Below, in pieces: positions 4,933 through 45,410 of a stretch of 47,055 nt of DNA. Position numbers and translations under genes: made by a program. How positions within the stretch are numbered: position 1 is the first letter of the stretch; the number at the start of each line of letters is the position of its first letter. Source of the stretch: Patescibacteria group bacterium (GTDB taxonomy: Bacteria > Patescibacteriota > Minisyncoccia > Phycocordibacterales > JACOZG01); contig JAYEGE010000004.1 in the NCBI GenBank assembly GCA_034658935.1, forward strand, positions 1 to 47,055, given 5' to 3'. The notes beneath the pieces are model-generated. The model was given only the letters and a program-made list of their open reading frames with translations. It ran no database searches and had not been told where the DNA came from.

Positions 4933-5013
4933 TTGACTTTCTCCCCATGATTAAGTAAGTTGACCAAGTACAGGTAATAGTTCCTTGAAAAACAAACCCT
5001 AATATACGAGGAG
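4933..5013 (+). promoter_or_regulatory. sigma70 promoter, boxA-like motif and SD of the radical SAM gene
   Basis: TTGACT(4933)-17 nt-TAAGTT(4956); GTTCCTTGAAAA 4980-4991; GAGGAG 5008-5013. Confidence 0.65.
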
Positions 5014-5019
5014 ATCGAG

Positions 5020-6975
5020 ATGACGGGTACCAAGCATTCAGTGCTGATGGCCCAAGCGAATTATCGATACGGGAGAAACGTCTTTATCCCCTATTCGATT
5101 GGTTCGCTTCAGGCCTACGCCCAAACCCGTCCAGAAATACAGGAGGGGTTCCAGTTCCAAGAGCCGCTTTTTCTGCGGACCGACCCAAGTGAGGTTGTTA
5201 GAAACGCCGGGAACCCGGCCATCGCCTGCTTATCGTGCTATATCTGGAATTGGGAATACAATAAGGCCCTAGCCAGAGCAATCCGAGCTTCCTTCCCAAG
5301 ATGCCTAATCATCTTCGGAGGGACCCAAGTGCCAGACGCTTCTGAAGGCTTTTTCGCCAGACACCCTTACGTGGATCTCCTGGTCCACCAAGAAGGGGAA
5401 CTCACCTTCGCGGAGATCCTCCGTCAATTCCTTTCGGCCCACCCCGACTACACCCAGGTCTCAGGACTAAGCGTGCGAGTCGAGGGAAACAAAACCCTGA
5501 AAACGAAGCCAGCTGGCAGAATCATGGATCTCTCCCAATTACCGTCGCCGTATTTGTCGGGCATCTTCGATTTTATACTGGGCCGAGGCTTTACGCTCAA
5601 CGTAAGCCAGGAGACAAACAGGGGCTGTCCCTATGGCTGCGCCTTCTGCGACTGGGGTGGGAACACCCACAACAAGCTGTACACCATTGACGAGGCCAGA
5701 ATCCTGGCCGAGTTTGAGTGGTTTGGCAAACACCAGGTGGGGTATCTCTTCAATTGCGACGCCAATTTTGGGATATTGCCACGTGATCATGGTTTACTGA
5801 GGAAAATGCTGGCAATACGTACCGAGCACGGCGGCTTCCCCGAAAAATTCCGAATGTGCACGGCCAAGAACAGCGACAATGGCATCTTCGACATCGCCAT
5901 GACGTTGAACGAAGCTGGAATGAGCAAGGGGGCAACCCTCTCCTTCCAAAGTATGGACCCTAAGACCTTGAGGGCCGTCGGGCGCAGTAATATCAGATTG
6001 GAGATGTTCTCTGCGCTTATGGCCCGCTACAGACAAGCCGATATGCCAACCTACACCGAGCTCATCATGGGCATGCCGGGCGAAACTTACGAGACCACCA
6101 AGCGCGGTGTCGACGAAATAATCGATGGGCAAGATGATGTGGTCAATATCCACGCTTACGTTTGCGGGATGTTGCCCAACTCACGGATGAGCCAGCCAGA
6201 TTACGTCAAGCAACATGGGATCAAAGCTGTCAGAATGCCGATCCTGCTCGCCCACAGCACACCAGAGCCAGGGTCTCTGCCCGAATACCAGGATGTTGTG
6301 GTGGAAACAGCCACCATGCCCCAAGCTGACTGGCAGCGAGCCTACGAGTTCTATTGGGCAGTCCAGACCTTCCATTGTCTGGGCCTGCTACAACATATTG
6401 CCATTGTTTGTCGGCGGCTTGGCGGTATCAATTACAGCGATTTCTATGAGCGGCTAATCGAGTACTTCGCCGGCCGCGAAGAAACCCTGATTGGTGGGCA
6501 AATTGCCCTAATAAGACGCCTGGTGCGCAGCTCACTTACGGGCGGACGACTTGACCTGGTCTCACCTCGGTTCGGCGATATCTATTGGCCATTGGAAGAA
6601 GTCAGCTTTCTCACGCTCATATCTGAGAAGGGGCGATGCTCCCAAGAAATTAGGCCGTTCGTCGCTCAGATGCTCCGGGGACGAGCGGAGGTGGCAGACG
6701 CTGGGTTCCAAGACGACCTGATTCTTTACGGATCATCAATAGTCAAGGGCCCGCATGATTCTGAAGCCACCATAACACTTGCCCATGATCTCCATGAGTA
6801 TTTCGGCCAACCGGAAAGCTGGGAAACCTTTCCCGCAAGAGTCTGCTCATCGGTACACGTCAAGCCAGAGCGCTGCTTCGGTGGCAATCTGGTGGAATAC
6901 GCCAGAGAAATCGTATGGTACGGCAGAAAAGGTGGGAAATTCCACCATTCTGACGTAACCAGCAGGCTCCTCTGA
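5020..6975 (+). CDS. Cobalamin-binding (class B-like) radical SAM protein
   Basis: SCYIWNWEY, IFGGTQV and QEGE in the B12-binding domain; ETNRGCPYGCAFCDW (CxxxCxxC); DANFG; ELIMGMPGET. Confidence 0.9.
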   Translation: MTGTKHSVLMAQANYRYGRNVFIPYSIGSLQAYAQTRPEIQEGFQFQEPLFLRTDPSEVVRNAGNPAIACLSCYIWNWEYNKALARAIRASFPRCLIIFGGTQVPDASEGFFARHPYVDLLVHQEGELTFAEILRQFLSAHPDYTQVSGLSVRVEGNKTLKTKPAGRIMDLSQLPSPYLSGIFDFILGRGFTLNVSQETNRGCPYGCAFCDWGGNTHNKLYTIDEARILAEFEWFGKHQVGYLFNCDANFGILPRDHGLLRKMLAIRTEHGGFPEKFRMCTAKNSDNGIFDIAMTLNEAGMSKGATLSFQSMDPKTLRAVGRSNIRLEMFSALMARYRQADMPTYTELIMGMPGETYETTKRGVDEIIDGQDDVVNIHAYVCGMLPNSRMSQPDYVKQHGIKAVRMPILLAHSTPEPGSLPEYQDVVVETATMPQADWQRAYEFYWAVQTFHCLGLLQHIAIVCRRLGGINYSDFYERLIEYFAGREETLIGGQIALIRRLVRSSLTGGRLDLVSPRFGDIYWPLEEVSFLTLISEKGRCSQEIRPFVAQMLRGRAEVADAGFQDDLILYGSSIVKGPHDSEATITLAHDLHEYFGQPESWETFPARVCSSVHVKPERCFGGNLVEYAREIVWYGRKGGKFHHSDVTSRLL

Positions 6976-6977
6976 GC

Positions 6978-7017
6978 AAGCCCCCCGCCGGCAACAGCCG
7001 GCCGGGGGCTTATTTTT
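6978..7017 (+). terminator. Intrinsic terminator
   Basis: AAGCCCCCCGCCGGC-AACA-GCCGGCCGGGGGCTT followed by ATTTTT, just after the stop codon. Confidence 0.85.
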
Positions 7018-7058
7018 AAATTGCGCATAATCATATGTTTCGGTAATCTATGTGATAC

Positions 7059-7841
7059 ATGGGCATCATAAAAAGGATATTGCTGGATAAGGAATACGAG
7101 GAGAAGAAAGCGGAATATGGGCTAGACGCCCCAGAAATGACTATCTACCACCGCGAGATAATCCTCCGAAAGAGATTCATTAAGAAGCTCTACCTGGACT
7201 GGTATGCAGATATCCTGGCTAAGATTGACACCGCTGGTAAAGTACTAGAACTGGGTTCCGGGGGTGGTTTTCTGAAAGACGTCGCGCCCTCAATTATCAC
7301 TTCCGACATCCTGCCATTACCTAATTGCGATATGACAGTTAACGCCTACCGATTACCATTCGCTGACAAAGAGCTCGCGGCCATAATAATGATCGACACT
7401 CTCCACCACATGGGAGAATGCCACCGTTTTTTCACAGAAGCAGAGCGAGCCCTCCGTCAGGGGGGAAAAATCATAATGATCGAACCCGCCAATACCGCCT
7501 GGAGCCGTTTTGTTTACCACAGTTTCCATCACGAACCATTCAATGAGAATGCCGCCGAATGGAACTTCCCTTCCGCGGGCCCGATGTCAATGGCCAATGG
7601 AGCGCTGCCATGGATAGTTTTCACGCGCGACAAACTAAAATTTGAGGCCGATTATCCTAACTTTAAAATCGCCCCCATACGGCGGCATACTCCGTTCCGC
7701 TACCCATTAAGCGGCGGCTTGTCCTATAAATCGCTCCTGCCTGGCTGGCTCCATGGAGCAGCAAAGCTAACCGAGCGATTATTATCCCCGTTCAACCAGC
7801 AACTTGCCATGTTCCAGACCATTGAAATAACCAAAACTTAA
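7059..7841 (+). CDS. Class I SAM-dependent methyltransferase
   Basis: VLELGSGGG motif I, LPF, DTLHH, RALRQGG. Confidence 0.85.
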   Translation: MGIIKRILLDKEYEEKKAEYGLDAPEMTIYHREIILRKRFIKKLYLDWYADILAKIDTAGKVLELGSGGGFLKDVAPSIITSDILPLPNCDMTVNAYRLPFADKELAAIIMIDTLHHMGECHRFFTEAERALRQGGKIIMIEPANTAWSRFVYHSFHHEPFNENAAEWNFPSAGPMSMANGALPWIVFTRDKLKFEADYPNFKIAPIRRHTPFRYPLSGGLSYKSLLPGWLHGAAKLTERLLSPFNQQLAMFQTIEITKT

Positions 7842-7849
7842 TATAGTCT

Positions 7850-8800
7850 ATGCTTAAAAAATCTAAAATATTCGTCGCTGGACATCACGGGCTAGTTGGC
7901 TCAGCCATAATTAGACTCTTAGAGAAACGAGGCTACGAGAACCTTGTCACAAGAACCAGGCAAGAATTAGATCTGCTAGACCAAAAAGCCGTCGCCAGGT
8001 TTTTTAAACGAGAAAGGCCCGAATACGTCTTCTTGGCTGCAGCTAAGGTTGGTGGTATTGTGGCCAATAATACCTACCCAGCTGATTTTATTTATCAAAA
8101 TTTAGTTATCCAGAACAATATTATCCATAACGCATACGCCAGTGGTGTAAAAAAATTATTGTTTCTGGGCAGCTCCTGCATCTATCCTCGTCTAGCTAAA
8201 CAGCCGATGAAGGAAGAATATCTCATGACTGGCCCCCTAGAGCCCACTAACGCGGCTTACGCAGCAGCCAAAATCGCCGGCATCATTATGTGTCAATCCT
8301 ATAACCGGCAACACGGTACGAATTATATCAGTCTGATGCCCACCAATCTCTACGGCCCCAACGACAATTTCGACTTGGAAAACTCTCATGTATTACCGGC
8401 TTTAATTCGCAAATTCCATGAAGCAAAGACGGGCAAGGCGGACAAAGTAGTACTTTGGGGGAGCGGTAGCCCGAGACGAGAATTCTTACATGTTGATGAT
8501 TTGGCCAGCGCTTGCCTGTTCTTAATGAGGAAATATAGCGGCTCAGACATTGTTAATGTCGGCACCGGCGAGGATCTATCAATTAAAAAGCTGGCAGAAA
8601 TGGTTAAAAAAAATGTGGGTTATCACGGAAAGATTATCTGGGACACGGCCAGGCCCGACGGCACACCCAGAAAATTATTGGACGTCAGCAAACTCACCGC
8701 CCTGGGCTGGCAATCACAAATTAAATTACCAGAAGGGATTAAGTCCGCTCATGATTGGTATACAAAAAATCTCGAGCGGCCTTCCGGCGCCCGAGATTAA
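7850..8800 (+). CDS. fcl: GDP-L-fucose synthase
   Basis: [56 protein letters not shown]. Confidence 0.95.
8764..8798 (-). terminator. Intrinsic terminator of the Nudix gene, lying inside the 3' end of fcl
   Basis: Minus strand AATCTCGGGCGCC-GGAA-GGCCGCTCGAGATT then TTTT; GNRA loop. Confidence 0.75.
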
Positions 8801-8817
8801 AGTCCGAACTGATGGAA

Positions 8818-9435
8818 TCACCGCCGACCAAGCAATAATCTCCTGGCGATAGGAAAGATCGAGCGGCAAACCGAATCTTGGCCATAGCCAAACTCAGACC
8901 ACACCGGCATGTCAGTTTCCGCAAACCAATGAACGCCCACCACTTCTTGGCCACCATGTTCGGTCTCACCGAACACAAAACTATCGTCCAGTAGGGCAAC
9001 AAGAAAGGTTAAGCCGATACAATGATCTCTGCCTGGTTCTGGTAGAAAGCCTTCTCTGGGCTCACGAGAATATTGAGCCACCACAGAAGGGGACTCAATT
9101 GGAGTTAGCAAATCAATCTTTACACCAAGGTCAGACGAGAAATGCCGTCGCAGGGCACCTTCGACTGATTCCCCCATTCCAATAACCCCGCCGACCAAAG
9201 CCAACTTACTAGCGCACGGCCCCGTCCCGCGACGAATCACCATTAGCTCAACCCGGCCCGCGTGAACGCGAGCGGGAACACCATCCACACAACTGATCGG
9301 CCCAAGTTGCTCCCGCAATTTAAACACCGGGTGGACCAATAAGCGCCCGCCACCCAAAAACAAATCTGGCCGGCTGCCCAGCTCACGCGCTAGATCCCCC
9401 GTCGGCACATCCTTTAGCGACTCTTGGTTAGGCAT
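8818..9435 (-). CDS. Nudix-fold protein with a degenerate Nudix box (DUF4916/Gmm-like)
   Basis: GGVIGMGESVEGALRRHFSSDLG. Start set at ATG 9435 behind SD GGGAGG (9441-9446); promoter TTGACT(9487)-18 nt-TATTGT. Confidence 0.75.
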   Translation of the reverse strand: MPNQESLKDVPTGDLARELGSRPDLFLGGGRLLVHPVFKLREQLGPISCVDGVPARVHAGRVELMVIRRGTGPCASKLALVGGVIGMGESVEGALRRHFSSDLGVKIDLLTPIESPSVVAQYSREPREGFLPEPGRDHCIGLTFLVALLDDSFVFGETEHGGQEVVGVHWFAETDMPVWSEFGYGQDSVCRSIFPIARRLLLGRR

Positions 9436-9483
9436 ATTGACCTCCCTTCTACACATCACAATAACACGATGACCTAGTGTAAG

Positions 9484-10557
9484 TCAAATTAGGTAAAGGT
9501 CTCTGAGTTTGGCCGCGAAACTAGACGAAACGAAATGTTCCTTAGCAAAATTCGCCGCCCCCTGCCCCATCGCCTCACTCTCCCCTTTCGGCAATTGGCT
9601 GAACTCTCTTATGGCCTCCGCTAGCATTTCAGCGCTTAGTGGATCAACAACCAAACCACATTGAGCCCCCTTAATCACTCGCGGCTGATCACTGACTGCC
9701 GAAGCGATAACTGGCCGGCCGGCCGCTAAATACTCAGATAATTTATGAGGATATTGCAAATCACTTACCCCCCCTTTAACGCGGGGCGAAACCATCACGC
9801 CGCAACTCTTTATAAAGCCTGGCACTCCTTCCCTTTCCACTCGGCCAAGATACTCTACATTTACTAGGCGAGGAAACTTTTTCCTATCCGCGGCGTCAAA
9901 CCCAGCTAAAACAAATTTAAGGCCAGGCTGCGTTTTTTCTAATATCTGTGCCGCCCCCAAGACAAAAGGGAGTCCTTGCCAAAAATTATCGTTGCCAATA
10001 TAACCAACAATTAAATCCTCTCTGGTGGGCGGGGCCTCGTATTTAACGTCAAAATCCACCGGCCCCCACAATACTTTAATTAATTTCGGCCAGGGCACTC
10101 GCCTTTGCAGAAACTCCTGTTGGCTAAAACTCATGGCAATGATAACGTCGGCTAACCACAGGCCGAGATAATCAAAGATCAGCAAAACGGCCCGCCTGAT
10201 AAACGTCAGTTGACCTGCTGTTTCAAACCAAGTCCAACCATGCATCTCAAAGACGATTTTGGCCCGATGATTACAGAATATTTTATAAAGTAGCGCCGGC
10301 AATATCGAGACGGTGGTAAAGCCATGAACAACATCAGGCCGCGACCGACGTAGATAGCTAAGTGTTTTGGATAAAAAATGCCATAACCGACCGGCGCCGA
10401 TTATCTCCAATCTGAGTAATGGGTTAAACGACAGGCCCGTTGGTGCAATTACTGACACCCCGCCCAGATTAGCTGCCGCGTTCATGGTCGTCTTGGCCCT
10501 AATCGGCGTGCCAGTCAATCGCTCTAAACTAAACGGACAAATAAAGGTAATTCGCAT
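9484..10557 (-). CDS. GT4 glycosyltransferase
   Basis: FEMHG, GYIG...WQG, PHKLSEYLAAGRPVIAS. Confidence 0.9.
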   Translation of the reverse strand: MRITFICPFSLERLTGTPIRAKTTMNAAANLGGVSVIAPTGLSFNPLLRLEIIGAGRLWHFLSKTLSYLRRSRPDVVHGFTTVSILPALLYKIFCNHRAKIVFEMHGWTWFETAGQLTFIRRAVLLIFDYLGLWLADVIIAMSFSQQEFLQRRVPWPKLIKVLWGPVDFDVKYEAPPTREDLIVGYIGNDNFWQGLPFVLGAAQILEKTQPGLKFVLAGFDAADRKKFPRLVNVEYLGRVEREGVPGFIKSCGVMVSPRVKGGVSDLQYPHKLSEYLAAGRPVIASAVSDQPRVIKGAQCGLVVDPLSAEMLAEAIREFSQLPKGESEAMGQGAANFAKEHFVSSSFAAKLRDLYLI

Positions 10558-10560
10558 AAA

Positions 10561-11652
10561 TTATTTATTTTCTTTTAACCACCATTCCATCCCCTCTTCA
10601 ATCGGCGGTAGGTAGCGGGCACAAATGTTTTTCAAGATTCTATCAATATTATATTCCTGCCGCCATTCAGGGTAATGTTTTTCAAACTTAGCCAGATCAG
10701 AAACATACCAGATATGGTCACCGACTCTGTTGGTATCTGAGTACTCTGTCAACGCCTTTTTCCCGGTTAATTTTTCAATTTTTTCGATCGCCTCCAACAT
10801 AGAGATATTGGAGTGACGCCCGCCACCGGCATTATAGGCCTCTCCTGGGTGGGGCCGTTGATGGAAATGCCAAAACATATTAATTAAGTCATGGGCATGA
10901 ATATTGTCTCTTACTTGCTTCCCCTTATAGCCGAAAATAGTGTATTTCTTACCTTCCAAAATACACTTCACCAAATAGGCCAAAAAACCATGGAGTTGAG
11001 TTCCGCTATGCTGAGGGCCCGTTAGACAACCGCCCCGGAAAACACCAGTGTTTAGTTTGAAATACCGACCATACTCTTGAACCATCACATCGGCGGCCAC
11101 CTTGGAAGCGCCGAAAACGCTATGAGTTGTTTGGTCAAGGCTCATAGACTCATCAATACCATTTTTATATTGATGGCTTGGCTCAATCTCGTAACGAGTC
11201 TCGAGTTCAACCAGAGGAAGAGAATTTGGGTTATCGCCATAAACCTTATTGGTCGAGGTAAAGATAAAGGTTGCTTCTGGCGAGAATCGTCGATAATTCT
11301 CCAACATGATGAGGGTCCCCCGAGCATTAACATCAAAATCGGTCAGGGGCTCCTTGGCAGCCCAATCATGGCTGGGCTGCGCCGCGGTATGAATAACAAT
11401 ATCAAAATGATGCTTTCGGAAAACTTTTTCTACTTTAGCCTCGTCTCTGATATCAATATCGTAGTGGACATATTTGTCTTTTAGTTCTGAAGTGAGCCTA
11501 TCTTTATTCCACGCAGTACTAGCCTCTTCCCCAAAAAAATATTTCCGCATATCATTGTCTACCCCAACGATCTGATAGCCCTTAGCAGCAAAAAACCGGG
11601 CCGCTTCAGAGCCCACCAGACCAGCCGAACCAGTAATTAAGGCCGTTTTCAT
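10561..11652 (-). CDS. NAD-dependent nucleotide-sugar epimerase (CDP-paratose 2-epimerase/RfbE-like)
   Basis: [42 protein letters not shown]. Start moved to ATG 11652. Confidence 0.85.
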
Positions 11653-11656
11653 AGAT

Positions 11657-12289
11657 CTAAACCTTATCAGCTTCGACATTAAGACTCAAGAGAATTTGTT
11701 TGTCCCCCACCATCAGCAAGCGCGAAGACCGATCGGTAAAATCATGGTGACTTACTGTTGACGGATCCCATCTCCTGATATTCACAAAACTAAGTTCAGT
11801 AAGCATCTCCTGAAGCCGCCGATAATTCCATAGGGTGTAATGATTATCATAAGGAGGTTCCTGCCCAAGTACTTGGTCACGTATTACGGAAATATCCCGG
11901 CCGGACTCTTGGTAGGCCATGACCAGGTTGTCAAAATCGGGCACAGAAATTCTTAACTTTCCCCCCTTTTTTAAAACTCGTCGCCACTCTTTTAATGTTG
12001 AGTCTAGTTTACTCCTGGGAATATGCTCGAGAACATGACTGGCATACAGAAGATCAACAGTATTGCTGCCCAACATATCCAAGCTAGTAATATCGTGGAT
12101 ATGGTGGATATTGGGGAGCTTTAGCACATCGATATTGACAAACCCCGGCCCCGAGGTACCCCCACAACCAACATTAACCAAAATCTTGCCGTCAGGATTA
12201 GCGGGAAATTTGGGCGCCCTAATATTCCGACGAGTTACCCCCAGCACCCGCCTGCCATATTCATAGACTGAGATCAAAAAGTCTTTCAT
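11657..12289 (-). CDS. SAM-dependent methyltransferase domain protein
   Basis: [32 protein letters not shown]. Confidence 0.85.
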
Positions 12290-13452: not shown

Positions 13453-13672
13453 TGATATGTGCTGGCCCACATAAGCGACCAGGAGATCGTTATAGAGTAG
13501 CAAAATTGAGCTTGATTTCCAATTTTACAACATCATATATTGCTAATTTAGTCAATAGTGCAAAAATCTCAAATCTGTGGCAACATGTCCCCCCAGAAGA
13601 GGCAGCAGAGAACATTGTTGTTCAGCGCCAGGAAACACAGCCAATAGGGCATAGCCATAAGGAGTACCTGAC

Positions 13673-14680: not shown

Positions 14681-14702
14681 CCGGCCCGGCCGACGATACG
14701 CC

Positions 14703-14738
14703 GAGCCAGTGGACTATCAGTTCACTGGCTCTTTTTTT
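14703..14738 (+). terminator. Intrinsic terminator
   Basis: GAGCCAGTGGAC-TATCA-GTTCACTGGCTC followed by T7. Confidence 0.9.
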
Positions 14739-14749
14739 ATTATCAAACA

Positions 14750-14837
14750 TTGACAAATTACAATCTCATGTGCTAGAAAACAGCTAGTTGAGGCGGGGCG
14801 GAAGTAGCCCCCCAAGGAACATTCACAAGAAAGGAGG
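14750..14837 (+). promoter_or_regulatory. Promoter, hairpin, boxA-like motif and SD
   Basis: TTGACA(14750)-18 nt-TAGAAA preceded by TG; hairpin GGGGC-GGAAGTA-GCCCC; GAACATTCACAA 14817-14828; AAGGAGG 14831-14837. Confidence 0.6.
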
Positions 14838-14843
14838 CCTGGA

Positions 14844-15893: not shown

Positions 15894-15915
15894 ACGCAGA
15901 GTAGGCAACCACACC

Positions 15916-15950
15916 AAGCTCAGGTTCGATATTCGAACCTGAGCTTTTTT
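15916..15950 (+). terminator. Intrinsic terminator
   Basis: Perfect 14-bp stem AAGCTCAGGTTCGA-TAT-TCGAACCTGAGCTT followed by TTTT. Confidence 0.92.
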
Positions 15951-35354: not shown

Positions 35355-35359
35355 AATCG

Positions 35360-36487: not shown

Positions 36488-36527
36488 GAGATTGGTTTCG
36501 TGGTATTGTGCACTCGACTCTACAATT

Positions 36528-37424: not shown

Positions 37425-38479
37425 CCTCGCCCAACTAGCCTTAACACCTCTTCCGCCGCCTGTGCGCTATTGCCAATCTTGCCCGAGAAGACATTGATTA
37501 TTTGGTCATTGATTCGGTAAACTAAAGTGGGCCGCTCATCAGTATGGTCAACATTTGGCAAGACAGTCCGAAAGGTATACATCGAACCAACATGTTCTGT
37601 CCCCTTGGCAATATCTGGCAAGAACTCTGCTGCCGCTGTCAAGAATTTCTTCACGTTAGTGATTGGAGGATTACTGATCACTCCACGATTGAGCAAGGGG
37701 GCAAACTCTTTGGGCAATAGTGGGAAGAGGCCAGTATTAGTGGAATGGATCGCATGGGTAACGTTACCTGCGACATGCCAAGCCGTATCACAATAAGGAT
37801 CAATGCACATAAATGGACCGTCCATCACCACCAGACTGATATCCTTGAACGACTGCGGTAATTTAAGAATCGGTTTTTCACACAATTCAAATTGATAAGT
37901 TCTCTGGGCCTCTGGAAAGCGTTTCAAGATAAAATTGAGATTGGCGTAGGTGCAATTAACCACAATGTCGTAATCATCGAAAATCGACTCGTCGGCCAAA
38001 TAATTTAGACGGACCTTGACTCCGGACTGTTCCAGTTTCCGCTTAATCAAACTTCGAAGAAGTACCGGATCAACTAAAAACTCTTTAGCCTTGATTATCA
38101 AATCGATGGCAGAAGGATCAACGCAGGGCAAGGTTGTTAGCTCATATTCTAGATCGTTGGCGTCACAAAATCTTAGAAAATAGTCACCTGTAACCTTACT
38201 ATCATTCTTAGCAATGCAATAATGATGGTTGAAACGATCAGTCGCTGCCTCACCATACTCGTCGAGAAATGACGGTTCGGCGGCACGCGACGATTGTGCC
38301 GTCTCTGAGCTACGTGGATAATGATAGCCCCGATGGAGCCGATACTGATTAATTCCTGAAGCCGCCTGAAGGATGTCACTATACTGCTCCATCAACGTTA
38401 CGTCATGGTCGGCATGAGCCAGTTTAATCGCCACCGTCGAACCAAAAATTCCACCCCCAATTACTGCAATTTTTGACAT
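37421..38479 (-). CDS. FAD-dependent oxidoreductase (DAO-like)
   Basis: VIGGGIFG, ASGINQYRLHRGYHYPRS, VMDGPF, SGKI. Confidence 0.85.
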   Translation of the reverse strand: MSKIAVIGGGIFGSTVAIKLAHADHDVTLMEQYSDILQAASGINQYRLHRGYHYPRSSETAQSSRAAEPSFLDEYGEAATDRFNHHYCIAKNDSKVTGDYFLRFCDANDLEYELTTLPCVDPSAIDLIIKAKEFLVDPVLLRSLIKRKLEQSGVKVRLNYLADESIFDDYDIVVNCTYANLNFILKRFPEAQRTYQFELCEKPILKLPQSFKDISLVVMDGPFMCIDPYCDTAWHVAGNVTHAIHSTNTGLFPLLPKEFAPLLNRGVISNPPITNVKKFLTAAAEFLPDIAKGTEHVGSMYTFRTVLPNVDHTDERPTLVYRINDQIINVFSGKIGNSAQAAEEVLRLVGRG

Positions 38480-38488
38480 TGACCCATA

Positions 38489-39625
38489 TTAATCTAGTTG
38501 GACTAAAGAATCAATGACCATCCGGAAACGTAAAGCTAGATGATCCCAATTATACTCAGACTTTACAAGTTGCTGGGCCGCAACAATTATTGACCGGATT
38601 TGCGCCGCATTATTAGCATCTAAAATATACCCAGCCTTCTCAGCAATACTCTCAGGGTCATCTACTCGAGCCAGCCAACCTGTCTCTCCATCTCTAAGAA
38701 AATCAGGAATACCCCCCACCGGAGTACCGATCGTCGGCAAGCCCATGGCCATGGCCTCCAGGAAAGAATTGCCCAGGCCCTCACTCCGAGATGGACGGCA
38801 AAAGGCATCAGCGGAGCCCAGGTACCGAGCCAAGCCAGAACTCTCAATTAAGCCCAAAAATGACACTCTGGGGCCCAATCCCAGCTTTGAAACTAAGGCC
38901 TTTAGGGCGGCCTTTTCCGGGCCATCACCTAAAATCTGCAATACCACATCATCTGGTAGAAAAGTTAAAGAGCGGATCAAATCGTCAATGCCATTTTTCT
39001 TAACCAACCGCGAGGTCGTAATTATAATCTTCGCGTCTCGTTTTTCTTCTTTTTTGGATTTTGAACTTTGAACTTTGAACTTACTTAAATCTACTCCATT
39101 GGGAATAACCGTCATTGGGCAAGTCGCGCCCATTGCCTTCGCCCAGGTCACCAAATAATTAGAGATGGCTTGAATACGATCAGGTAATTTAAAAACGTTA
39201 AGCAGTCTTGGTCCCCACAAACGCAGGCGGTAAGCCAGTGAGCCCAAATCGTCCCCTTCTTGAAGGGTGAGCAGAAATGGAACAACCGGGAGACGCTTCT
39301 TGAATATTGCCGCTGCCATCCCCGCTTGGTTTGCCATCATCGCCCAAACTAATTTATAGGGAGTCTCTTGATGACGACGGGCGGCCCAACAGGCGGCTCG
39401 CCAGGGAAATAAATACTTACCCCAAAGACCACCTGGCAAACGGTGGACCAATACATTACCGATACATTCCTGCTCAGTCTGGCTATTATCAAAATTAACC
39501 GTAACTAATTCCCATTTATAATCCGACAAGCGATCAGTCAATTCTTTAAGAGCCACCTCAGCACCACCAACCCAAGGATAATAGGCGGCGCTGAAAATCA
39601 ATACTCTCGGCTTATCAGTAATCAT
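38489..39625 (-). CDS. GT4 glycosyltransferase
   Basis: VGGAE, IPNGVD, SRLVKKNG, EGLGNSFLEAMA, VGGIP. Confidence 0.92.
   Translation of the reverse strand: MITDKPRVLIFSAAYYPWVGGAEVALKELTDRLSDYKWELVTVNFDNSQTEQECIGNVLVHRLPGGLWGKYLFPWRAACWAARRHQETPYKLVWAMMANQAGMAAAIFKKRLPVVPFLLTLQEGDDLGSLAYRLRLWGPRLLNVFKLPDRIQAISNYLVTWAKAMGATCPMTVIPNGVDLSKFKVQSSKSKKEEKRDAKIIITTSRLVKKNGIDDLIRSLTFLPDDVVLQILGDGPEKAALKALVSKLGLGPRVSFLGLIESSGLARYLGSADAFCRPSRSEGLGNSFLEAMAMGLPTIGTPVGGIPDFLRDGETGWLARVDDPESIAEKAGYILDANNAAQIRSIIVAAQQLVKSEYNWDHLALRFRMVIDSLVQLD
39053..39080. repeat. Heptamer tandem repeat in frame in a GT4 gene
   Basis: TTTGAAC x3 at 39060-39080 plus a degenerate TTTGGAT; encodes KFKVQSSKSK. Confidence 0.8.
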
Positions 39626-41436
39626 ATTTTGAGCACCTGGCGCAAATCAGTTTCTGACACTTCATCTTGCTCGCCCGAACGACCAGTGTCGTCTGGTCGG
39701 GCGGGTTTACTCAAACTCTGTATCGGCTGATCCGGTGAACGCGTAGAGGAAGACGGTTTATTGGCGGCAATATTACCCTTTGGCGGCAAGGCCGACTTCA
39801 ATTCTGCTTGGACCGATTGCAGAACCTGCTTTAAGTCGGCGGCATGACGCCCAGTACTCTTGTCTTTATTGGGCTGGTCTTTAAGTGAAGATAGGGGTAA
39901 AGACCCGGCCTTCTGCCGCGGCTTCCCAGGTGGTTTTTTTTCATCAAGTGCTTGAGTAATCGCTTTACCTAGAGGCTGACTAGCCGGGGCTGTGGCTGGG
40001 GTCGCCGCCGGGACAGGTCTGCCCGGACTCGACGTCGACGAGACAGATCTACTTTGCGGGACCCGTGACTGCGGCCTCCTGCCCGACTGACGAGACGCGC
40101 CGCCGGGAAACCGGGACGCGCCACCAGAGAGACGAGAAGATTTAAGATCGCTCTCTTCATGCCATTTGTTAATTTCAGCCTCCACCTCTACTTGTGGTCT
40201 AGAGTAACGCGCTCTGGAAGTAGCGATGATATCGTCACGATTAGAAACGCCATCCTGAGGTATTGGCGGCATGCCACGAGCCGAAAAAGGTTGGGAGCCG
40301 ACGCCATTGATCATCAACGTTAGATACATTTGATAAAGGCCGAGATTGACCATATCTTCTTTCATAAACGTAGGCCCAAATATCTTTTCGAATATCTCAG
40401 CATCGAAGGGGCCGACCCGATAAGAAATTATAGAACCAACATTGCCGAACACAGCCGCCCGAACCTCTTCGGACATCTGTTCGATATATTGGTGAGCGAT
40501 AGTCAAAGACAATTTGTATTTCCTGGCCTCCGACAGGATATTAGCGAAGGATTCATTAGCGAAAGATTGGAACTCATCAACATAGAAATAAAAGGAGGGT
40601 AGAGTCCGCAAAACAGGAGCCGGAATATTGGCCCGAGACATCGCCGCCAAATAGATTTTAGTGATAATCATCGAGCCCAATAAATTAGCATTGGACTCGC
40701 CCATCCGCCCCTTAGAGAGGTTAACGATTAAGATCTTTCTCTCGTCCATCACCTTACGAAAGTCAAAAGAGGATTTTGGTTGGCCGATAATGTTTCTAAT
40801 CAGAGGATTAGCAGTGAATTGACCAATCTTGTTCTGGATCGCCGGTACCGATTCGGCCGCCATCCGCTCAGTGTAGTTTGCAAACTCATCAAGCCAAAAG
40901 GAGCGGGCAGAGGGGTCAGTTGCATTTTCGACTACTTTCTTTCGATACTCTTTGTCGGAGAGAACCCGATTGACGCCAAGCAAGGTCGCCCCAGGATACT
41001 CAAGCAAAATTAAAATAGTGTTCTGTAGAATATATTCCATTCGGGCCGACCAAGCATCAACCCAAATCTTTTTGAAAGCCGACATCAGGCCATTGACCAC
41101 TAAGTGGCGCTGGTCTTTGCCAACATCCTCCATAACGTTAAAAGAGATGGGGTGCTCTAAGTCAAAGGGGGCGAAATAAACTACGTCCTTAATTCGATCA
41201 GCGGGTACATAATCAAGTAATTTCTCGGCCGTCCCACCGTGCGGGTCAATGAAGGCCATTCCCTCCCCCCGCTGAATATCCTGGATGGCCATATTCTCAA
41301 GGGTGGTAGATTTACCCATGCCCGTCTTCCCGATCACATAGACGTGACGGGCCCTATCCTCACTTTTAATACCGAACTTAGTCCGCTTACCGCGGAAATC
41401 GGTTTCGGCAAAATAAGTAATATCTCGATCATCCAT
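39622..41436 (-). CDS. VirD4/TraD/HerA-like ATPase with a disordered C-terminal tail
   Basis: RHVYVIGKTGMGKST (Walker A), IDPHG, YVDEFQ (Walker B), EARKY, AHQY. Confidence 0.88.
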   Translation of the reverse strand: MDDRDITYFAETDFRGKRTKFGIKSEDRARHVYVIGKTGMGKSTTLENMAIQDIQRGEGMAFIDPHGGTAEKLLDYVPADRIKDVVYFAPFDLEHPISFNVMEDVGKDQRHLVVNGLMSAFKKIWVDAWSARMEYILQNTILILLEYPGATLLGVNRVLSDKEYRKKVVENATDPSARSFWLDEFANYTERMAAESVPAIQNKIGQFTANPLIRNIIGQPKSSFDFRKVMDERKILIVNLSKGRMGESNANLLGSMIITKIYLAAMSRANIPAPVLRTLPSFYFYVDEFQSFANESFANILSEARKYKLSLTIAHQYIEQMSEEVRAAVFGNVGSIISYRVGPFDAEIFEKIFGPTFMKEDMVNLGLYQMYLTLMINGVGSQPFSARGMPPIPQDGVSNRDDIIATSRARYSRPQVEVEAEINKWHEESDLKSSRLSGGASRFPGGASRQSGRRPQSRVPQSRSVSSTSSPGRPVPAATPATAPASQPLGKAITQALDEKKPPGKPRQKAGSLPLSSLKDQPNKDKSTGRHAADLKQVLQSVQAELKSALPPKGNIAANKPSSSTRSPDQPIQSLSKPARPDDTGRSGEQDEVSETDLRQVLKI

Positions 41437-41477
41437 TGACCGAGATTATACCACTTTTACACCAGACAATGAATGAA

Positions 41478-42755
41478 TCAATTGGTCTGCAGAGCCTCCT
41501 TAGTATACCGATTAGATGGCGCCCATAACATCCACGAGTTTAGGCCGGAATCGTAAGTGGCTTGGATTTGGGCTCGGACCTCTTCTGGGCCATAATTACC
41601 GCCGTAATCAAAATCTTGGAGCCAGGGACGAATCTTGTGGGGATCATAAACTGGCTTGCGATAGATAGGGGGGGTACTAGTACCGATACGTTGATGAGTG
41701 TTGGCCAGCACTGTAGTAGTTGCCGAAATCGTCCTCCTCACCGCACTATCCATTGATAGCTTGATCACCTCATAAACATGATCATTGGGATTACTCCAAC
41801 CATTAAAGCCAGCCGGGTAATGTGAGGGATAAACCATTGGGGCAATATAATCGAAATAAGGCAGAGCCCGCTCCAATACCTGGCCAATATTTAAGTCATC
41901 AGTATTAGTAGTAGTCATGCCAAAGAGGTCAGCCGAGAGCACTGGCACTTGGTCGGGTGCCGCCACGCCACTGTCTGGTCTCAATTCGCCGTGCAGGTAG
42001 GTGAAGAATTTCTCGAGCACAACTGCCTTGCCTTGATTGCCGCTATGAGGAAAAGCGATGTCTTTCATATTGCCGTCGGAGGGGAAACGAACATAATCAA
42101 AATTCAATTCATCGAAACCAAGAGCGTAAGACTCTTGAGCTAGAGCAATAATATAATCCCAAAAGGGGCGGGCCCCGACATCAATAAAGGATAACTTTTT
42201 CTTGTCCTTCCATACTCCGCCATCACTGGCCCGCTTAACCGCTAATTCTGGATGAGCTGCCGCATAGAGAGGATCCTGGAAAACTGTAATCCGGCCAATA
42301 ACGTAAATCCCTTTATTGTGGAGCATCGCTACAAAATCCTCCATATCGTTGGCCCCACAATGGTCAGAAACGTAATCCACCAAGGCAGGGTGCTCAGTAG
42401 AGAAAGCAATACCGCCAGTGTAATCTTTGATATCTATAACGACACTATTCAATTCAGTTTCCTCTATCAACTCAACTAGATCCGCACGGAAACTTGGTGT
42501 CCCCGCCACACATTGAGTCATGTAGATGGTCTTAACCGCCTCCGGCGTGGCAACGTGTACTGGCCACGGCGGAACTGGCAACACCTCAGACGTCTCGTCA
42601 GTCTCTAGGTTGGAAGCATTAACGTCAGTATTATAAATTCTCGCTGGCAAGAAATCTGGCAAAACAAAGAAAGATAACCACCAGCCAAGAGAGCCCAGCG
42701 CCAGAACTACTATTAGGACCAACCAACTAGACCCGCTTGCCATCCACTGCCGCAT
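41478..42755 (-). CDS. Membrane-anchored putative glycoside hydrolase (DUF4015-like TIM barrel)
   Basis: N-terminal TM; VIDIKD, GRITVFQD, FDYVRFP, PMVYPSHY, RPWLQDF. Start uncertain. Confidence 0.75.
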   Translation of the reverse strand: MRQWMASGSSWLVLIVVLALGSLGWWLSFFVLPDFLPARIYNTDVNASNLETDETSEVLPVPPWPVHVATPEAVKTIYMTQCVAGTPSFRADLVELIEETELNSVVIDIKDYTGGIAFSTEHPALVDYVSDHCGANDMEDFVAMLHNKGIYVIGRITVFQDPLYAAAHPELAVKRASDGGVWKDKKKLSFIDVGARPFWDYIIALAQESYALGFDELNFDYVRFPSDGNMKDIAFPHSGNQGKAVVLEKFFTYLHGELRPDSGVAAPDQVPVLSADLFGMTTTNTDDLNIGQVLERALPYFDYIAPMVYPSHYPAGFNGWSNPNDHVYEVIKLSMDSAVRRTISATTTVLANTHQRIGTSTPPIYRKPVYDPHKIRPWLQDFDYGGNYGPEEVRAQIQATYDSGLNSWMLWAPSNRYTKEALQTN

Positions 42756-43026
42756 GGGTATCTGATGGATTAAGCTCGGCCAATTGTTCCACCTCCTGCC
42801 GATCAACGTCAGTCTGAGAATCGTTATCAGATTCAGATTGGCCGCCCTCATCACGGGGCGCTGACCTCAATCGCCTCAAACGTGCCAGAGAAAAAAGGGC
42901 GATTAATAGGCCGAGGAAGCTAATCAGACCTGCCTTGAGATTTTTAGGCAGGCTTAGCCAGGGTAAAAGTACAATCACCAAACCGAGAAAAAAATTATTC
43001 CAATTCTTGAAACCCTTATTGTGCAT
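42727..43026 (-). CDS. Small 2-TM hypothetical protein
   Basis: MHNKGFKNWNNFFLGLVIVLLPWL...; ATG 43026 directly follows the murC stop. Confidence 0.6.
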   Translation of the reverse strand: MHNKGFKNWNNFFLGLVIVLLPWLSLPKNLKAGLISFLGLLIALFSLARLRRLRSAPRDEGGQSESDNDSQTDVDRQEVEQLAELNPSDTHAAVDGKRV

Positions 43027-43030
43027 TAGC

Positions 43031-44356
43031 CTATGATAACAGATCGTCTGCCAGCTGAGAAATATCACCGGCGCCCAGAAGAATGACCACATCTCCCTCC
43101 CCAGTATCCCGCTCAAGACGGCTAGCGATCTGACCAAAATCAGCTAGATGGCAGATTTGTTTGCCAGTCTGCGATACAGCCTCAGCTAAGCTGGCTCCGC
43201 TAATAGTTGGGTCTGGTTTCTCTCTGGCGGCGTAGATATTGGTCACAATTACTTCATCAGCGTCATTAAAACTGGCAACAAAATCAGCAAAAAGTGATTT
43301 AATCCGACTATAGAGATGGGGCTGAAAAACAGCAATAATTTTTTTATCAGGAAAAGCCTCCCGCGCACCCTGCAAGGCGGCACGCACCTTCTGTGGGTTA
43401 TGGGCGTAATCATCGTAGACCAAGGCGCCACTTTTCATTATCCCCCTAAACTCAAAGCGCCGCCAAGCTCCAGTAAATTTATTCACTGCCTTGAGCGCAA
43501 CCGAGAGGCCGACCCCCAATGCTTCTGCTGCTACTAAGGCCGCCCTGGCATTTTCTAAGTTATGCTTCCCAGGCACCTTAAGCGCCAACTTGGAGTCCGC
43601 CGCGGCGGATCCAAGTGAGGGATAATCGATGATTTTGACTTTGCTGGCGGCAATAATTGGAGCTAAGGTGGGATTATGAGCATCGCAAATTATGAAGCCG
43701 TCAGCTGACACCTTTTGCGCCAACTCCACAAAGGCTGATTGGATATCGGCTAGGTCCTTATAATAATCTAGATGATCAAGATCGATATTGGTGATTATCA
43801 ATAGGGAAGGCGAGAAATTGAGGAAGGCCCGTTGGTATTCATCAGCCTCGAGTAATAAGTACTTGCCTCCGCCAGCTACAAAATTCGTCCGTTTCTCCGA
43901 AGAATCATCAAGTAATAAAGTGCCGACAACCACTGTTGGATCAAGGCCGGCCTCGATCATAATCTTCGCCAACATTGCCGTGGTTGTGGTCTTGCCGTGA
44001 GTCCCCGCCACTGCGATAACCTCATAATCTCGAGAAATAAGTCCGAGTATTTCTGGATAAGATAATAGGGGAGCGCCAAGCGCCTTAATCCCCTCAAGTA
44101 GCCCCGGGTCCGCAACTTTGATTGCATTGGAGTAAACGATCAAGTCAGCGTCCCGAGGGACTAAGCCTAAGTCCTGGCCAATATCTACCTTGACCCCCTC
44201 CTCCACCAAGCTATCTGTAATTTCTGACTGACCCTCATTACAACCCTCAACCTCCTTACCCAAACCCCTAAACATTCGAGCGATGGCCGAGACACCAATG
44301 CCGCCAATGCCCACAAAATAGACCTTTTTTGACTTGTGCCAATCTACTTCCAACAT
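43031..44356 (-). CDS. murC: UDP-N-acetylmuramate--L-alanine ligase
   Basis: FVGIGGIGVSA, VAGTHGKTTTT, EADE, DHLDYY, RRFE, DDYAHNP, FQPH. Confidence 0.95.
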   Translation of the reverse strand: MLEVDWHKSKKVYFVGIGGIGVSAIARMFRGLGKEVEGCNEGQSEITDSLVEEGVKVDIGQDLGLVPRDADLIVYSNAIKVADPGLLEGIKALGAPLLSYPEILGLISRDYEVIAVAGTHGKTTTTAMLAKIMIEAGLDPTVVVGTLLLDDSSEKRTNFVAGGGKYLLLEADEYQRAFLNFSPSLLIITNIDLDHLDYYKDLADIQSAFVELAQKVSADGFIICDAHNPTLAPIIAASKVKIIDYPSLGSAAADSKLALKVPGKHNLENARAALVAAEALGVGLSVALKAVNKFTGAWRRFEFRGIMKSGALVYDDYAHNPQKVRAALQGAREAFPDKKIIAVFQPHLYSRIKSLFADFVASFNDADEVIVTNIYAAREKPDPTISGASLAEAVSQTGKQICHLADFGQIASRLERDTGEGDVVILLGAGDISQLADDLLS

Positions 44357-44500
44357 ATTGGGGCCAGTATAACAGAGATCTAGACGCCGCCAAGACAGTA
44401 TGCTAATAAATAAGAGGACGGATCTTCGTTATACGAGTAGGCCGAGTAAACCAAGCAAGTGGAAAAGCACTACCCCAATAGGGAGAAAGGATGGTGCAAA

Positions 44501-45373
44501 ATGACAAGAACATCAGCGGCCGATCCGAACGCGGCGGATAGGGAAAAACAGACCATAGTCGTCGAAAGACCGTTTGGAGACGAGGCGCCAGTGAAAGTGG
44601 TCCTATTGGGCCGACCAGAGAATTGGCTACCGAGCCAAATGACCGAAGAGCAATTGGAGCGAATTGCAAATCTGGTTGCCACCCACGGTGTGGAATATGT
44701 CTTCGCCCCCGACCCCAGCACTTTCAACGCCGAGATCTGTCACCGATCGGATCTGGCGAAGATCAAGTGCCTACCAGGCACACAAGCGGTCATTAGGGGA
44801 GGACATCAGGCTGACGGCCTAGTCATAGGCCGGAGGGATGCCGTCCTCATACCCAGCGCCGATTGTGCCACCACTCTCCTTTTCCAGGCTGGAACAGGGA
44901 AATTGGTCGTTGCTCACACCGGCCTCAAAAGTCTATTGGATTTGCCGGCGATCATCGGCGAGCGCAAAGAAAAGAAAGTATCAGTCATCGTAAGAATGAT
45001 GCGGGAAATGATCGACGGGAAGAATCCCCTGGCGGCCTGGATAGGGCTATGCATTGGACCCCAGCATTTCACCTTCCCCCTCGACCATCCTCAATTCGGA
45101 GAGGGGAATAGGCGCCTGCTCGATCATCTGCATCGACATTGGCCATGTTACCTGCCGGAACCAAGGGAGTCCGGCCAGGTAGATCTCAGGGAGTTGATAC
45201 GACAGCAACTCTTGCTATGCGGAGTACCCAGACTCAATATCCTCACAGATCAGAACGACACCCATAGCGACACGCGGCTTGATAACGAACCTGCTTGGCA
45301 TAGCCACCGTCGCGGCTACGATCAAGATAGCCCGACTAGCGCCAGAAACGGTGTGCTAGTGATACACGAGTGA
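44501..45373 (+). CDS. YfiH/PgeF (laccase-domain, Cu-oxidase_4) family protein, divergent
   Basis: ADGL, SADC, AHTG, CIGP, VDL, SHRR, RNG; SD-like AAGGA before ATG 44501; promoter-like TAGACG(44381)-17 nt-TAATAA. Confidence 0.8.
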   Translation: MTRTSAADPNAADREKQTIVVERPFGDEAPVKVVLLGRPENWLPSQMTEEQLERIANLVATHGVEYVFAPDPSTFNAEICHRSDLAKIKCLPGTQAVIRGGHQADGLVIGRRDAVLIPSADCATTLLFQAGTGKLVVAHTGLKSLLDLPAIIGERKEKKVSVIVRMMREMIDGKNPLAAWIGLCIGPQHFTFPLDHPQFGEGNRRLLDHLHRHWPCYLPEPRESGQVDLRELIRQQLLLCGVPRLNILTDQNDTHSDTRLDNEPAWHSHRRGYDQDSPTSARNGVLVIHE

Positions 45374-45377
45374 AGAA

Positions 45378-45410
45378 AGGCCCCCGCACGATGCGGGGGC
45401 CTATTTTATT
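45378..45410 (+). terminator. Intrinsic terminator overlapping the murD stop codon
   Basis: 11-bp perfect stem AGGCCCCCGCA-CGA-TGCGGGGGCCT followed by ATTTTATT. Confidence 0.88.

Follow-up and report, generated by a model that had tools for sequence, protein, structure and literature searches.

Phage morons are independent transcription units with their own promoter and terminator and a deviating G+C content; in the description by Cumby, Davidson and Maxwell (2012, PMC3594210), they are inserted between genes of conserved order, are variably present and spread horizontally. A second precedent concerns the ribosome: Tsurumaki et al. (2022, RNA 28:1041, PMC9297842) report the CCTCCT motif at the 3′ end of 16S rRNA in only 48% of Parcubacteria and suggest that Shine-Dalgarno (SD) helices do not form there. 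Here we describe contig JAYEGE010000004.1 of a Patescibacteria group bacterium (assembly GCA_034658935.1), the whole of which, 47,055 bp, we call the window. Seven of its genes, starting at 5020(+), 9435(−), 13673(+), 14844(+), 18117(−), 19939(+) and 44501(+), are laid out as self-contained units, each a single open reading frame (ORF) with an SD motif before it and a strong intrinsic terminator behind it. Our best explanation, which we consider probable, is that these are moron-like portable single-gene transcription units, part of the flexible genome of a leaderless host without an anti-SD, and that the seven belong to a genome-wide class of about 25–45 genes (4–6% of the genome). The original prediction for this DNA, made from its letters, knew of no named system for such an arrangement; the phage moron is a named analogue.

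The window is one entire contig (C4) of a metagenome bin, genome G000, which comprises 658,963 bp in 10 contigs and has an estimated completeness of 99.4% and an estimated contamination of 0.5% (0.53%). The named relatives of its proteins are Parcubacteria-type Patescibacteria, namely Vogel-, Zambryski-, Taylor-, Ryan- and Lloydbacteria. Comparisons were made with G001 (same genus), G007 and G021 (same family; the latter, 716 kb, used whole) and with G034 and G150, both from another family.

The signals around the seven genes largely bear out the original prediction. An SD motif of at least 5 nt lies 4–9 nt before the start in 7/7, compared with 3 of the 33 other window genes of at least 100 amino acids (aa), where the matches are weak 5-mers at chance level; the backbone is mostly free of SD motifs, as had been claimed. 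Behind every one of the seven stop codons stands a compact G/C hairpin with a T run after it, at RNAfold energies of −22 to −31 kcal/mol. For six of the terminators the z-score is −3.1 to −7.4 and 0/200 shuffles fold equally well; the 60-nt stretch past 17035 reaches only z −1.85, yet contains a classic 9-bp G/C hairpin (−18.2 kcal/mol) followed by UUUAUUUU. In a scan of both strands over the full window, which listed 41 hairpin-plus-T sites, these were the sole compact gene-end hairpins at or below −18 kcal/mol, besides the last one read in reverse behind murD, in agreement with the claim that no other clear terminators are present. The promoters fared less uniformly. Pairs of −35 and −10 boxes at 17–18 nt had been proposed for all seven and called weak at 13673 and 44501. 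By sequence match, promoter-like pairs stand upstream of five units; 14844 has a −10 box only and 44501 nothing convincing, while 13673 has TTGATT-18-TATATT, which leaves 14844 and 44501 as the weak ones.

Composition sets the same genes apart. Their G+C content (0.538–0.568) does not overlap that of the other 32 genes (mean 0.463, maximum 0.509; Mann-Whitney U 224/224, p 6.5e-8), and the separation is nearly as complete for G+C at third codon positions (GC3; U 221/224), where the Nudix gene at 9435 is least distinct (0.519). Gaps of at most 4 nt or overlaps account for 11/25 of the backbone gaps that do not border the seven, and a TATAAT-like box (at least 5/6 matches) stands 3–12 nt before a candidate start in 13/33 of the other window genes.

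Key context that the original prediction lacked lies in the host 16S rRNA. The single 16S gene of G000 (C7:1810-3324) matches the Rfam model end to end (1–1533) and finishes in ...GGUCGUGGAAUUAUUCAAGG, with AAUUAUUCAAGG at the position where other bacteria carry GAUCACCUCCUUA. Neither CCTCC nor CTCCT occurs in the gene or in the 600 nt past helix 45, except at one unrelated far-downstream site, and CCUCC is absent in 11/11 readable 16S 3′ ends of order relatives (15 loci examined; anchor not found in 3 others). The tails of these relatives are A/U-rich and differ between genomes (AUUAUUCAAGG, AUUCUUCCGAAGG, UCAAUUCCAAAC and others), which suggests that the 16S tail may be under little constraint in this order. 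G000 and its order fit the Parcubacteria subgroup without an anti-SD. With no anti-SD in the host 16S rRNA, the SD therefore cannot act in the usual way, and the SD motifs that the prediction had correctly located before the seven genes cannot pair as normally understood.

Ordinary genes of this host appear instead to be of the leaderless type. The 5′ end of the motif TAnnnT peaks at −12 from the start (90/686 genes versus about 8–41 at other positions), a placement that leaves the box 6 nt before the start codon, and TATAAT-like boxes (at least 5/6) lie 3–12 nt before a candidate start in 232/686 genes versus 44/544 internal controls. It is because of this peak and this excess that we take the ordinary genes to be probably leaderless.

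Across G000, an SD, a terminator, a TTGACA −35 box and high GC3 coincide in about 43/686 genes. Genome-wide prediction of SD motifs and terminators, the check proposed along with the original prediction, found the signals to be associated rather than independent in both G000 and G021. SD motifs of at least 6 nt precede 44/686 G000 ORFs versus 15/544 internal controls; gene-end terminators follow 39 genes versus 8 in internal control stretches; and the two co-occur with an odds ratio of 6.9 (p 2.6e-7). Genes with GC3 of at least 0.57 (n=90) carry an SD of at least 5 nt in 30% versus 9% of cases (p 4.5e-7) and a terminator in 20% versus 3.5% (p 1.7e-7). TTGACA is the most enriched hexamer upstream of the class, at 12/35 versus 22/501 (p 1.7e-7). 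G021 has a set of its own, with an odds ratio of 9.5 between SD and terminator (p 3e-12) and TTGACA upstream of 11/26 class genes versus 10/529 others. Among the hexamers upstream of class genes in G000 and G021, no shared leader motif beyond the promoter was strongly enriched; GTTCTT was mildly so (5/35 versus 15/501 in G000, 5/26 versus 17/529 in G021; p 0.002–0.007, uncorrected).

All four signals lie near consensus, and ribosomal protein S1 is among the class members, as would be expected if SD, promoter, terminator and G/C-ending codons had been selected for strong expression. The most conserved core genes speak against this explanation. The 15 with at least 75% identity to G021 have an SD of at least 5 nt in 7% of cases, no terminators and a GC3 z-score of 0.08, and the most conserved core genes overall have terminators in 0–2% and a GC3 z-score near 0; because these genes lack the signals and have average GC3, the class is not a mark of strong expression. 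Class genes are, moreover, mostly accessory, many of them ORFans, and SD pairing cannot boost translation in this host, so that we regard selection for expression as very improbable.

G+C in the G000 class is raised at all three codon positions, the third most (0.593/0.439/0.609 versus 0.549/0.389/0.494 in the other genes). This is also what plain recent import from G+C-richer, SD-using bacteria would leave behind, with SD, promoter, terminator and G+C content as decaying relics of the donor that have no role in the host. Such an origin agrees with a host unable to pair with the SD and with the accessory, patchy character of the class; the G021 class, which is nearly without excess (0.492 versus 0.477), does not agree with it.

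The class genes constitute the flexible genome. Reciprocal best hits link only 6/43 of them in G000 to a gene of G021, compared with 335/643 others, and in the reverse direction the figures are 1/26 class genes versus half of 611 others. Syntenic flanks in G021 could be found for 13 class genes at 12 sites, the remaining 30 having no usable flanks (20) or non-syntenic flanks (10). Seven of the 12 sites are empty, with the flanking orthologues adjacent, and the other five hold different genes, three of them with an SD or terminator. The radical S-adenosylmethionine (radical-SAM) gene at 5020 occurs in 4/300 genomes, its close copies (61–63% identity) confined to one genus, and the family of the gene at 14844 in 1/400 class-level genomes; metagenome relatives of the latter numbered 0 in a first scan and two loci in a second, made with a 2-row alignment.

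These absences bear on a further explanation, that the class is a native, vertically inherited regulon of monocistronic, leadered, separately regulated and fast-evolving genes, whose gaps are mostly failures of orthologue detection. The proteins would suit it, since 14/20 class genes beyond the window match no Pfam family, which is expected of fast-evolving proteins. The truly empty sites do not suit it, nor does the want of any strongly enriched leader motif besides the promoter. Where unit orthologues do exist, their layout is retained: those of the B12-binding radical-SAM gene (19939), the 5020 radical-SAM gene, the 14844 gene and NeuB (13673) in G007, G034 and G150 show SD-like motifs and hairpin-T terminators and are G+C-richer than the genes beside them, within a syntenic glycan locus. 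They are 43–66% identical to the G000 proteins, and the surrounding backbone genes 38–72%. The unit architecture is NEVERTHELESS old. Architecture kept in orthologues across families and at conserved positions is at the same time a point against recent import.

Replacement can be followed at one locus. In G000 the PgeF-like gene (44501) lies between murC and murD; the same site in G001 holds an unrelated 97-aa gene on the same strand as the PgeF-like one, and this gene has signals of its own: TTGACA-17-TAGCCT, AGGAG and a hairpin followed by a T run. A different unit between murC and murD is in keeping with the replacement in place that the original prediction had envisaged, and it argues against a native regulon. 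The PgeF-like gene is present in 19/30 family genomes at only 25–36% identity to the G000 copy. Family PgeF-like proteins have a median pairwise identity of 30.7%; murC is 44–50% identical to that of G000. In a clade of six genomes the N-terminal coding sequence of this gene has drifted apart, but four elements remain conserved: the −35 (CTGGACAAA), the −10 (TAGAGT), a GATCTTTAAC block and AAGGAG. AAGGAG stands 5–7 nt before the start in 6/6 as a conserved island, and the anti-SD is confirmed missing in two members (G017, G020). A neutral 6-nt motif should not survive such divergence, so it would be either selected in hosts that cannot pair with it or renewed often from SD-using lineages; either cause would account for the conservation. 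That the island and the −35/−10 blocks are kept in an anti-SD-less clade is difficult to reconcile with decaying relics of recent imports.

The B12-binding radical-SAM family gives the broadest view of how one unit is distributed. It was found in 6/200 order genomes, although at 58–72% identity it is easily detectable, and this again counts against a native regulon with missed orthologues. For the wider family we analysed 66/79 loci; those left out were 13 further Roseibium or truncated records, and the short ORFs L116 and L147 were dropped before counting. Homologues in anti-SD-bearing Patescibacteria show 61–63% identity, and relatives 51–58% identical occur in Roseibium, Polyangiaceae, Planctomycetota, Nitrospirae and Acidobacteriota (L098–L121, L144, L156), figures that recent import would accommodate. 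An SD of at least 5 nt is found in 32/45 and a terminator in 29/44 of the Patescibacteria loci. The 19 loci of other phyla have a G+C excess of +0.013 and a terminator in only three. Among the eight confirmed anti-SD-less hosts, five have an SD of at least 5 nt, and two of the other three have uncertain starts. A tree built with a quick method, in which rows L158 and L163 (wrong-strand ORFs) were disregarded, places the Patescibacteria copies in two clades. The first has as its sister group (99*) a clade of Planctomycetota, Polyangiaceae, Nitrospirae, Acidobacteriota and Roseibium; the second includes G000 and all eight hosts with a known anti-SD-less 16S tail, with one anti-SD-bearing host nested within (97*). 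Because the tree mixes phyla as well as anti-SD-bearing and anti-SD-less hosts, a pattern that a native regulon does not predict, the family appears to have crossed phyla and host types with its layout stable. Replacement of alleles in situ within genus g24 was considered and rejected, as the neighbours (57–66%) are as diverged as the gene (66%) and no signal is seen. We note that the Patescibacteria copies are located in nonulosonate-type glycan loci.

Several observations weigh against reading the units as portable. The PgeF-like gene adjoins murC on the opposite strand in 10/12 family loci where it was called, with, by eye, an SD in 9/12 and a hairpin plus T run in 11/12. The G000 protein has no relative above 41% among 1.84 billion representatives, and a word-indexed search of 5.8 billion proteins returned none; the pattern fits fast evolution in place as well as replacement. 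The B12-binding radical-SAM gene lies at the same position, by an AP-endonuclease-fold gene, in G000, G034 and G150, which indicates long residence; its identity (62–66%) is similar to that of the backbone neighbours (57–71%), and SD, terminator and G+C excess are kept in each genome. Its G+C content exceeds that of the flanks at 45/45 Patescibacteria loci (mean +0.076) and tracks it (slope 0.87, r 0.82). No integrase or repeats that might serve as a transfer vehicle flank the units in the window. Two points of method belong here as well. Gene calls and starts are our own crude ones (686 ORFs in G000), and the SD score is the best of at most 4 candidate starts, with controls scored alike; and the definition of the 43-gene class was built on features later compared, while the associations among SD, terminator and GC3 in G000 and G021 were computed independently of that definition.

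A native regulon draws most from these points, since the PgeF-like and B12-binding radical-SAM units keep both position and architecture, their promoter and leader blocks are conserved and the G+C excess is constant across hosts. The poorly resolved PgeF tree cuts both ways: 8/13 family copies fall in one clade, as inheritance would have it, yet its starred branches force at least four changes of family label. Taken with the empty sites, the swapped murC–murD site and the mixed B12-binding radical-SAM tree, this leaves vertical inheritance as the sole account unlikely in our judgement. Recent import is also quite unlikely. A gene whose G+C content tracks that of its host with a constant excess does not fit a recent arrival from a G+C-rich donor, and the PgeF-like protein of G000 is without a close relative in any search. 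For the same reason incomplete amelioration does not fit the G+C excess; biased gene conversion in often-recombining genes is one possibility for its source. Finally, the crude gene caller, the origin of the genome as a metagenome bin in 10 contigs and the fact that the sole DNA run containing the stretch, labelled a brine metagenome, is its probable source could be taken to indicate an artefact of chimeric assembly, bin contamination or biased gene calling and motif scoring. We find this scarcely credible. The units are embedded between backbone genes at seven separate places of one 47-kb contig, the layout recurs independently in G007, G034, G150, G021, G001 and 12 family loci, the contamination estimate is low, and G+C content and terminators are unaffected by the choice of start.

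The original prediction had offered two alternatives, modules imported or replaced in situ and a second, separately regulated class of native genes, and each holds in part. Patchy families, empty sites and a swapped site support the former; SD, terminator and G+C excess kept at the same position in other families, and gene G+C that follows host G+C, support the latter. In the moron-like explanation that we favour, each unit would be a single ORF preceded by a full sigma-70-type promoter with a TTGACA-like −35 and by a leader of 15–130 nt that carries a canonical GGAG-type SD, and closed by a strong intrinsic terminator. The host lineage has lost the anti-SD, and its ordinary genes are probably leaderless, with the −10 box 6 nt upstream of the ATG, or tightly coupled in operons. 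Units would be gained, lost and exchanged singly at set positions in the conserved gene backbone, in the manner of phage morons, and would circulate among Patescibacteria with and without an anti-SD, some families reaching other phyla. Thanks to its own promoter, a unit could be expressed in any orientation and any operon setting in which it is inserted, and its own terminator would keep transcription from reading into the neighbours. We infer that transfer is the cause of the pattern and that promoter, SD and terminator are probably used as read.

The leadered mRNAs of the units would then be translated by means other than pairing of SD and anti-SD. Because GGAG is kept as an island in anti-SD-less hosts (the PgeF clade and the B12-binding radical-SAM hosts above), we tentatively raise the possibility that the GGAG-type element is a working signal in anti-SD-less ribosomes, read by a protein or by another RNA contact, or acting on mRNA stability. 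Two start systems would on that suggestion run in parallel, a leaderless one for the core and an SD-like one without anti-SD for portable leadered genes. CsrA as a reader of leader GGA motifs was considered and dropped, as no CsrA gene (PF02599) was found in the 99.4% complete genome; bS21 was likewise not found in G000. The genome encodes a ribosomal protein S1 with four S1 domains (C8:55109-56368). The S1 gene is one of the few conserved genes that meet the class definition; it ends in a terminator, its GC3 z-score is 1.2 and it is 66% identical to the G021 copy. Pairing of the SD or leader with altered 16S tails, inspected by eye in 8 hosts, showed no consistent covariation and was rejected; in two hosts a tail with CUUCC would be able to pair with GGAAG or GGAGG, and the 5020 leader contains CCUUGAA, a match to UUCAAGG of G000, but one 7-mer match is within chance. 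Just 3′ of the −10 box, B12-binding radical-SAM leaders (window 19858-19938; L078, L079, L090, L131, L151 and others) contain a conserved block, GTTCTTTGAGAAC, with a GTTC-N5-GAAC inverted repeat, and PgeF leaders (L197–L208) contain GATCTTTAAC at the same place. Such a block past the −10 could be an operator or a 5′-end element. A start-aligned consensus structure of the B12-binding radical-SAM leaders gave no shared fold.

The seven units, in order along the window, are as follows. Unit 1 (4933..7017, + strand) begins with TTGACT (4933)-17-TAAGTT and has a GAGGAG SD at 5008-5013, 6 nt from the start of the radical-SAM ORF (5020-6975, 651 aa; G+C 0.538, GC3 0.629), with a hairpin at ~6979-7012 and then a T run (−31.1 kcal/mol, z −5.9). 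A permissive Rfam scan of the window returned only ctRNA_pGA1, at 32 bits versus a cut-off of 45, on this terminator (6966-7022), which we take as chance. Unit 2 (8760..9487, − strand) has TTGACT-18-TATTGT, TG-extended, at 9487-9458, a GGGAGG SD at ~9446-9441 with 5 nt to the start, a Nudix/DUF4916 ORF (9435-8818; G+C 0.545) and a hairpin at ~8798-8768 plus T run (−22.2 kcal/mol, z −3.1). This terminator is located within the 3′ end of the convergent fcl-like gene. Unit 3 (13512..14738, + strand) has its promoter-like pair at 13512-13541, a leader of ~125 nt, an AAGGAG SD at 13659-13664, 8 nt from the start, a NeuB-family ORF (13673-14680; G+C 0.568, GC3 0.643) and a terminator at 14703-14731 plus T7 (−22.3 kcal/mol, z −6.1). 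Unit 4 (14750..15952, + strand) has a TACAAT box ~79 nt upstream with a weak −35, and an AAGGAGG SD at 14831-14837, 6 nt from the start. Its ORF (14844-15893; G+C 0.548) has no Pfam family and a predicted GT-B fold similar to UDP-GlcNAc 2-epimerase, and its terminator lies at 15916-15946 plus T run (−22.9 kcal/mol, z −7.4).

Unit 5 (16982..18207, − strand) has TTGACA (18207)-17-TACCTT (to 18179), an AAGGAG SD at ~18130-18125, 7 nt from a GTG start at 18117, and an ORF (18117-17035; G+C 0.562) that joins a KdsC-family phosphatase domain, for which Atlas structural matches reach TM 0.84–0.95 (hit side), to a SLOG domain; its terminator occupies 17012-16990, ahead of the T run given above. Unit 6 (19824..21703, + strand) carries TTGATT-17-TATACT at 19824-19852, a leader of ~80 nt, a GAGGTGA SD at 19928-19934, 4 nt from the start, the B12-binding radical-SAM ORF (19939-21660) and a terminator at ~21669-21699 plus T run (−23.3 kcal/mol, z −5.9). 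Unit 7 (44459..45412, + strand) consists of the PgeF-like (Cu-oxidase_4) ORF, from ATG 44501 (or GTG 44459) to 45373, with AAGGA/GGGAG at 44481-44491 (AAGGA at 9 nt, the weakest SD) and a terminator at 45378-45402 plus T run (−24.5 kcal/mol, z −4.3); on the other strand the same hairpin reads as a terminator for murD. The starts at 9435 and 44501 match the signals better than the longest-ORF starts at 9459 and 44459. Several units had been said to oppose the local strand. Those at 19939 and 44501 do oppose both neighbours; the other five stand at strand switches.

The placement of the units beside their own pathways is upheld by Pfam and Atlas matches. The Nudix/DUF4916 gene adjoins fcl-like and gmd genes; NeuB, the KdsC-family phosphatase domain and the UDP-GlcNAc 2-epimerase-like GT-B protein stand among nonulosonate genes; and the PgeF-like gene lies between murD and murC. 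The terminators of many unrelated class genes in G000, G007, G034 and G150 loosely resemble one another, with CGC-YAYRG-GCG enclosed by an outer stem rich in G/C (as in GGTTCGCCATAGCGAACC and GATCCGCCACGGCGGATC), a likeness that may point to a shared origin or to a terminator module that is mobile. The 32 backbone genes (901..46801, mixed strands; G+C 0.39–0.51) mostly abut or overlap and have TAnnnT boxes a few nt before the start. By Pfam they include a surface-glycan locus with Wzy_C, GDP-mannose dehydratase, an fcl-like epimerase, several glycosyltransferases, a DegT aminotransferase, a CMP-type cytidylyltransferase, a flippase, GtrA and PMT_2, in which NeuB also lies; 3′ of the glycan genes follow IscS/NifU, further glycosyltransferases, a DUF4015 gene, murC and murD. 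The longest ORFs of a glycosyltransferase (35360-36601, −) and a GFO/IDH/MocA oxidoreductase (36468-37424, +) overlap head to head by 134 nt, so that one start is probably further in. At 25152-25823 lies a gene for an IS200-like Y1 transposase of the RAYT (REP-associated tyrosine transposase) type, adjoined at ~25095-25125 by an A/T-rich hairpin (ATCAAGGA...TCCTTGAT), a pattern that occurs 8× in the genome. Repetitive extragenic palindromic (REP) elements were considered as an identity for the unit terminators and rejected, the hairpin by the transposase gene being A/T-rich, unlike the seven.

As far as the literature searched shows, this is the first gene-level picture of the aftermath of anti-SD loss in a large Parcubacteria group, one in which the core is leaderless; we found no paper on gene starts in anti-SD-less Parcubacteria, nor on SD motifs retained by a minority of their genes. 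The moron concept is known, as is anti-SD loss in Parcubacteria, which is little studied; the point of real interest here is an SD conserved without an anti-SD. Our results highlight that the flexible genome of these ultra-small bacteria is recognisable by its expression signals alone (−35 box, SD and terminator), an inexpensive indicator of gene flow and of variation in surface glycans among uncultured lineages. They also raise the question of why a canonical SD is conserved before genes in organisms whose ribosomes are unable to base-pair with it. A motif that is functional there would mean that SD function does not depend on the 16S tail; a motif without function would make these genomes a gauge of the survival time of dead signals under continual gene exchange.

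Leaderless genes of Actinobacteria and Deinococcus-Thermus have a −10 box 6–7 nt before the start codon, with transcription starting at the A of the ATG. These groups keep the anti-SD and use the SD for leadered genes. Leaderless expression in Actinobacteria and Deinococcus-Thermus is reportedly the subject of work by Cortes et al. in 2013 and Shell et al. in 2015. Judged from its sequence, the backbone described here resembles theirs, with a −10 hexamer ending 6–7 nt before the start and no SD, and differs in that the anti-SD is gone. In Bacteroidota, initiation is SD-independent, the anti-SD is kept but sequestered on the ribosome, and a few genes such as rpsU, ribosomal or regulatory in function, still bear an SD. 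The present host likewise leaves the SD generally unused and has a small SD-bearing set; unlike Bacteroidota, it lacks the anti-SD and its SD-bearing genes are accessory. Integron cassettes have no promoter, carry an attC site at their end and depend on an integrase, and glycan loci are the usual hot spots of replacement-type flexible genomic islands. The units resemble both in the exchange of one gene or a few at constant positions. Unlike cassettes, they have promoter-like pairs of their own and 3′ hairpins that differ from one another in sequence and lead into T runs, and Pfam matched no integrase family among the 41 window proteins.

Compared with a canonical SD-led gene, the units have the GGAGG-type motif 4–10 nt before the start in 7/7, and the host lacks CCUCC at the 3′ end of its 16S rRNA (a single 16S gene, and 11/11 relatives, as read from the gene sequences). 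The loss of the anti-SD is shared with the Parcubacteria of Tsurumaki et al. (2022, PMC9297842), whose account of the motif, as far as its passages on it go, does not cover gene starts or an SD-bearing minority. Like phage morons, the units have their own promoter-like sequences, by sequence match (5/7 pairs and one −10 only, with TTGACA enriched in the class), and their own factor-independent terminator (7/7). Their G+C content is unlike that of their neighbours, with complete separation in the window and weakly in G021, and they are extra genes between neighbours that are adjacent in relatives, with 7/12 sites empty in G021 and the murC–murD unit swapped in G001. They differ from morons in translation start, where an SD contrasts with a leaderless host, and in residence: they are chromosomal, in glycan and cell-wall loci rather than in a phage or prophage, and Pfam identified no phage families among the proteins of this glycan, Fe-S and mur region. 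Because phage residence is the only defining feature of a moron that they lack, we conclude that the units probably work like morons without being members of that group.

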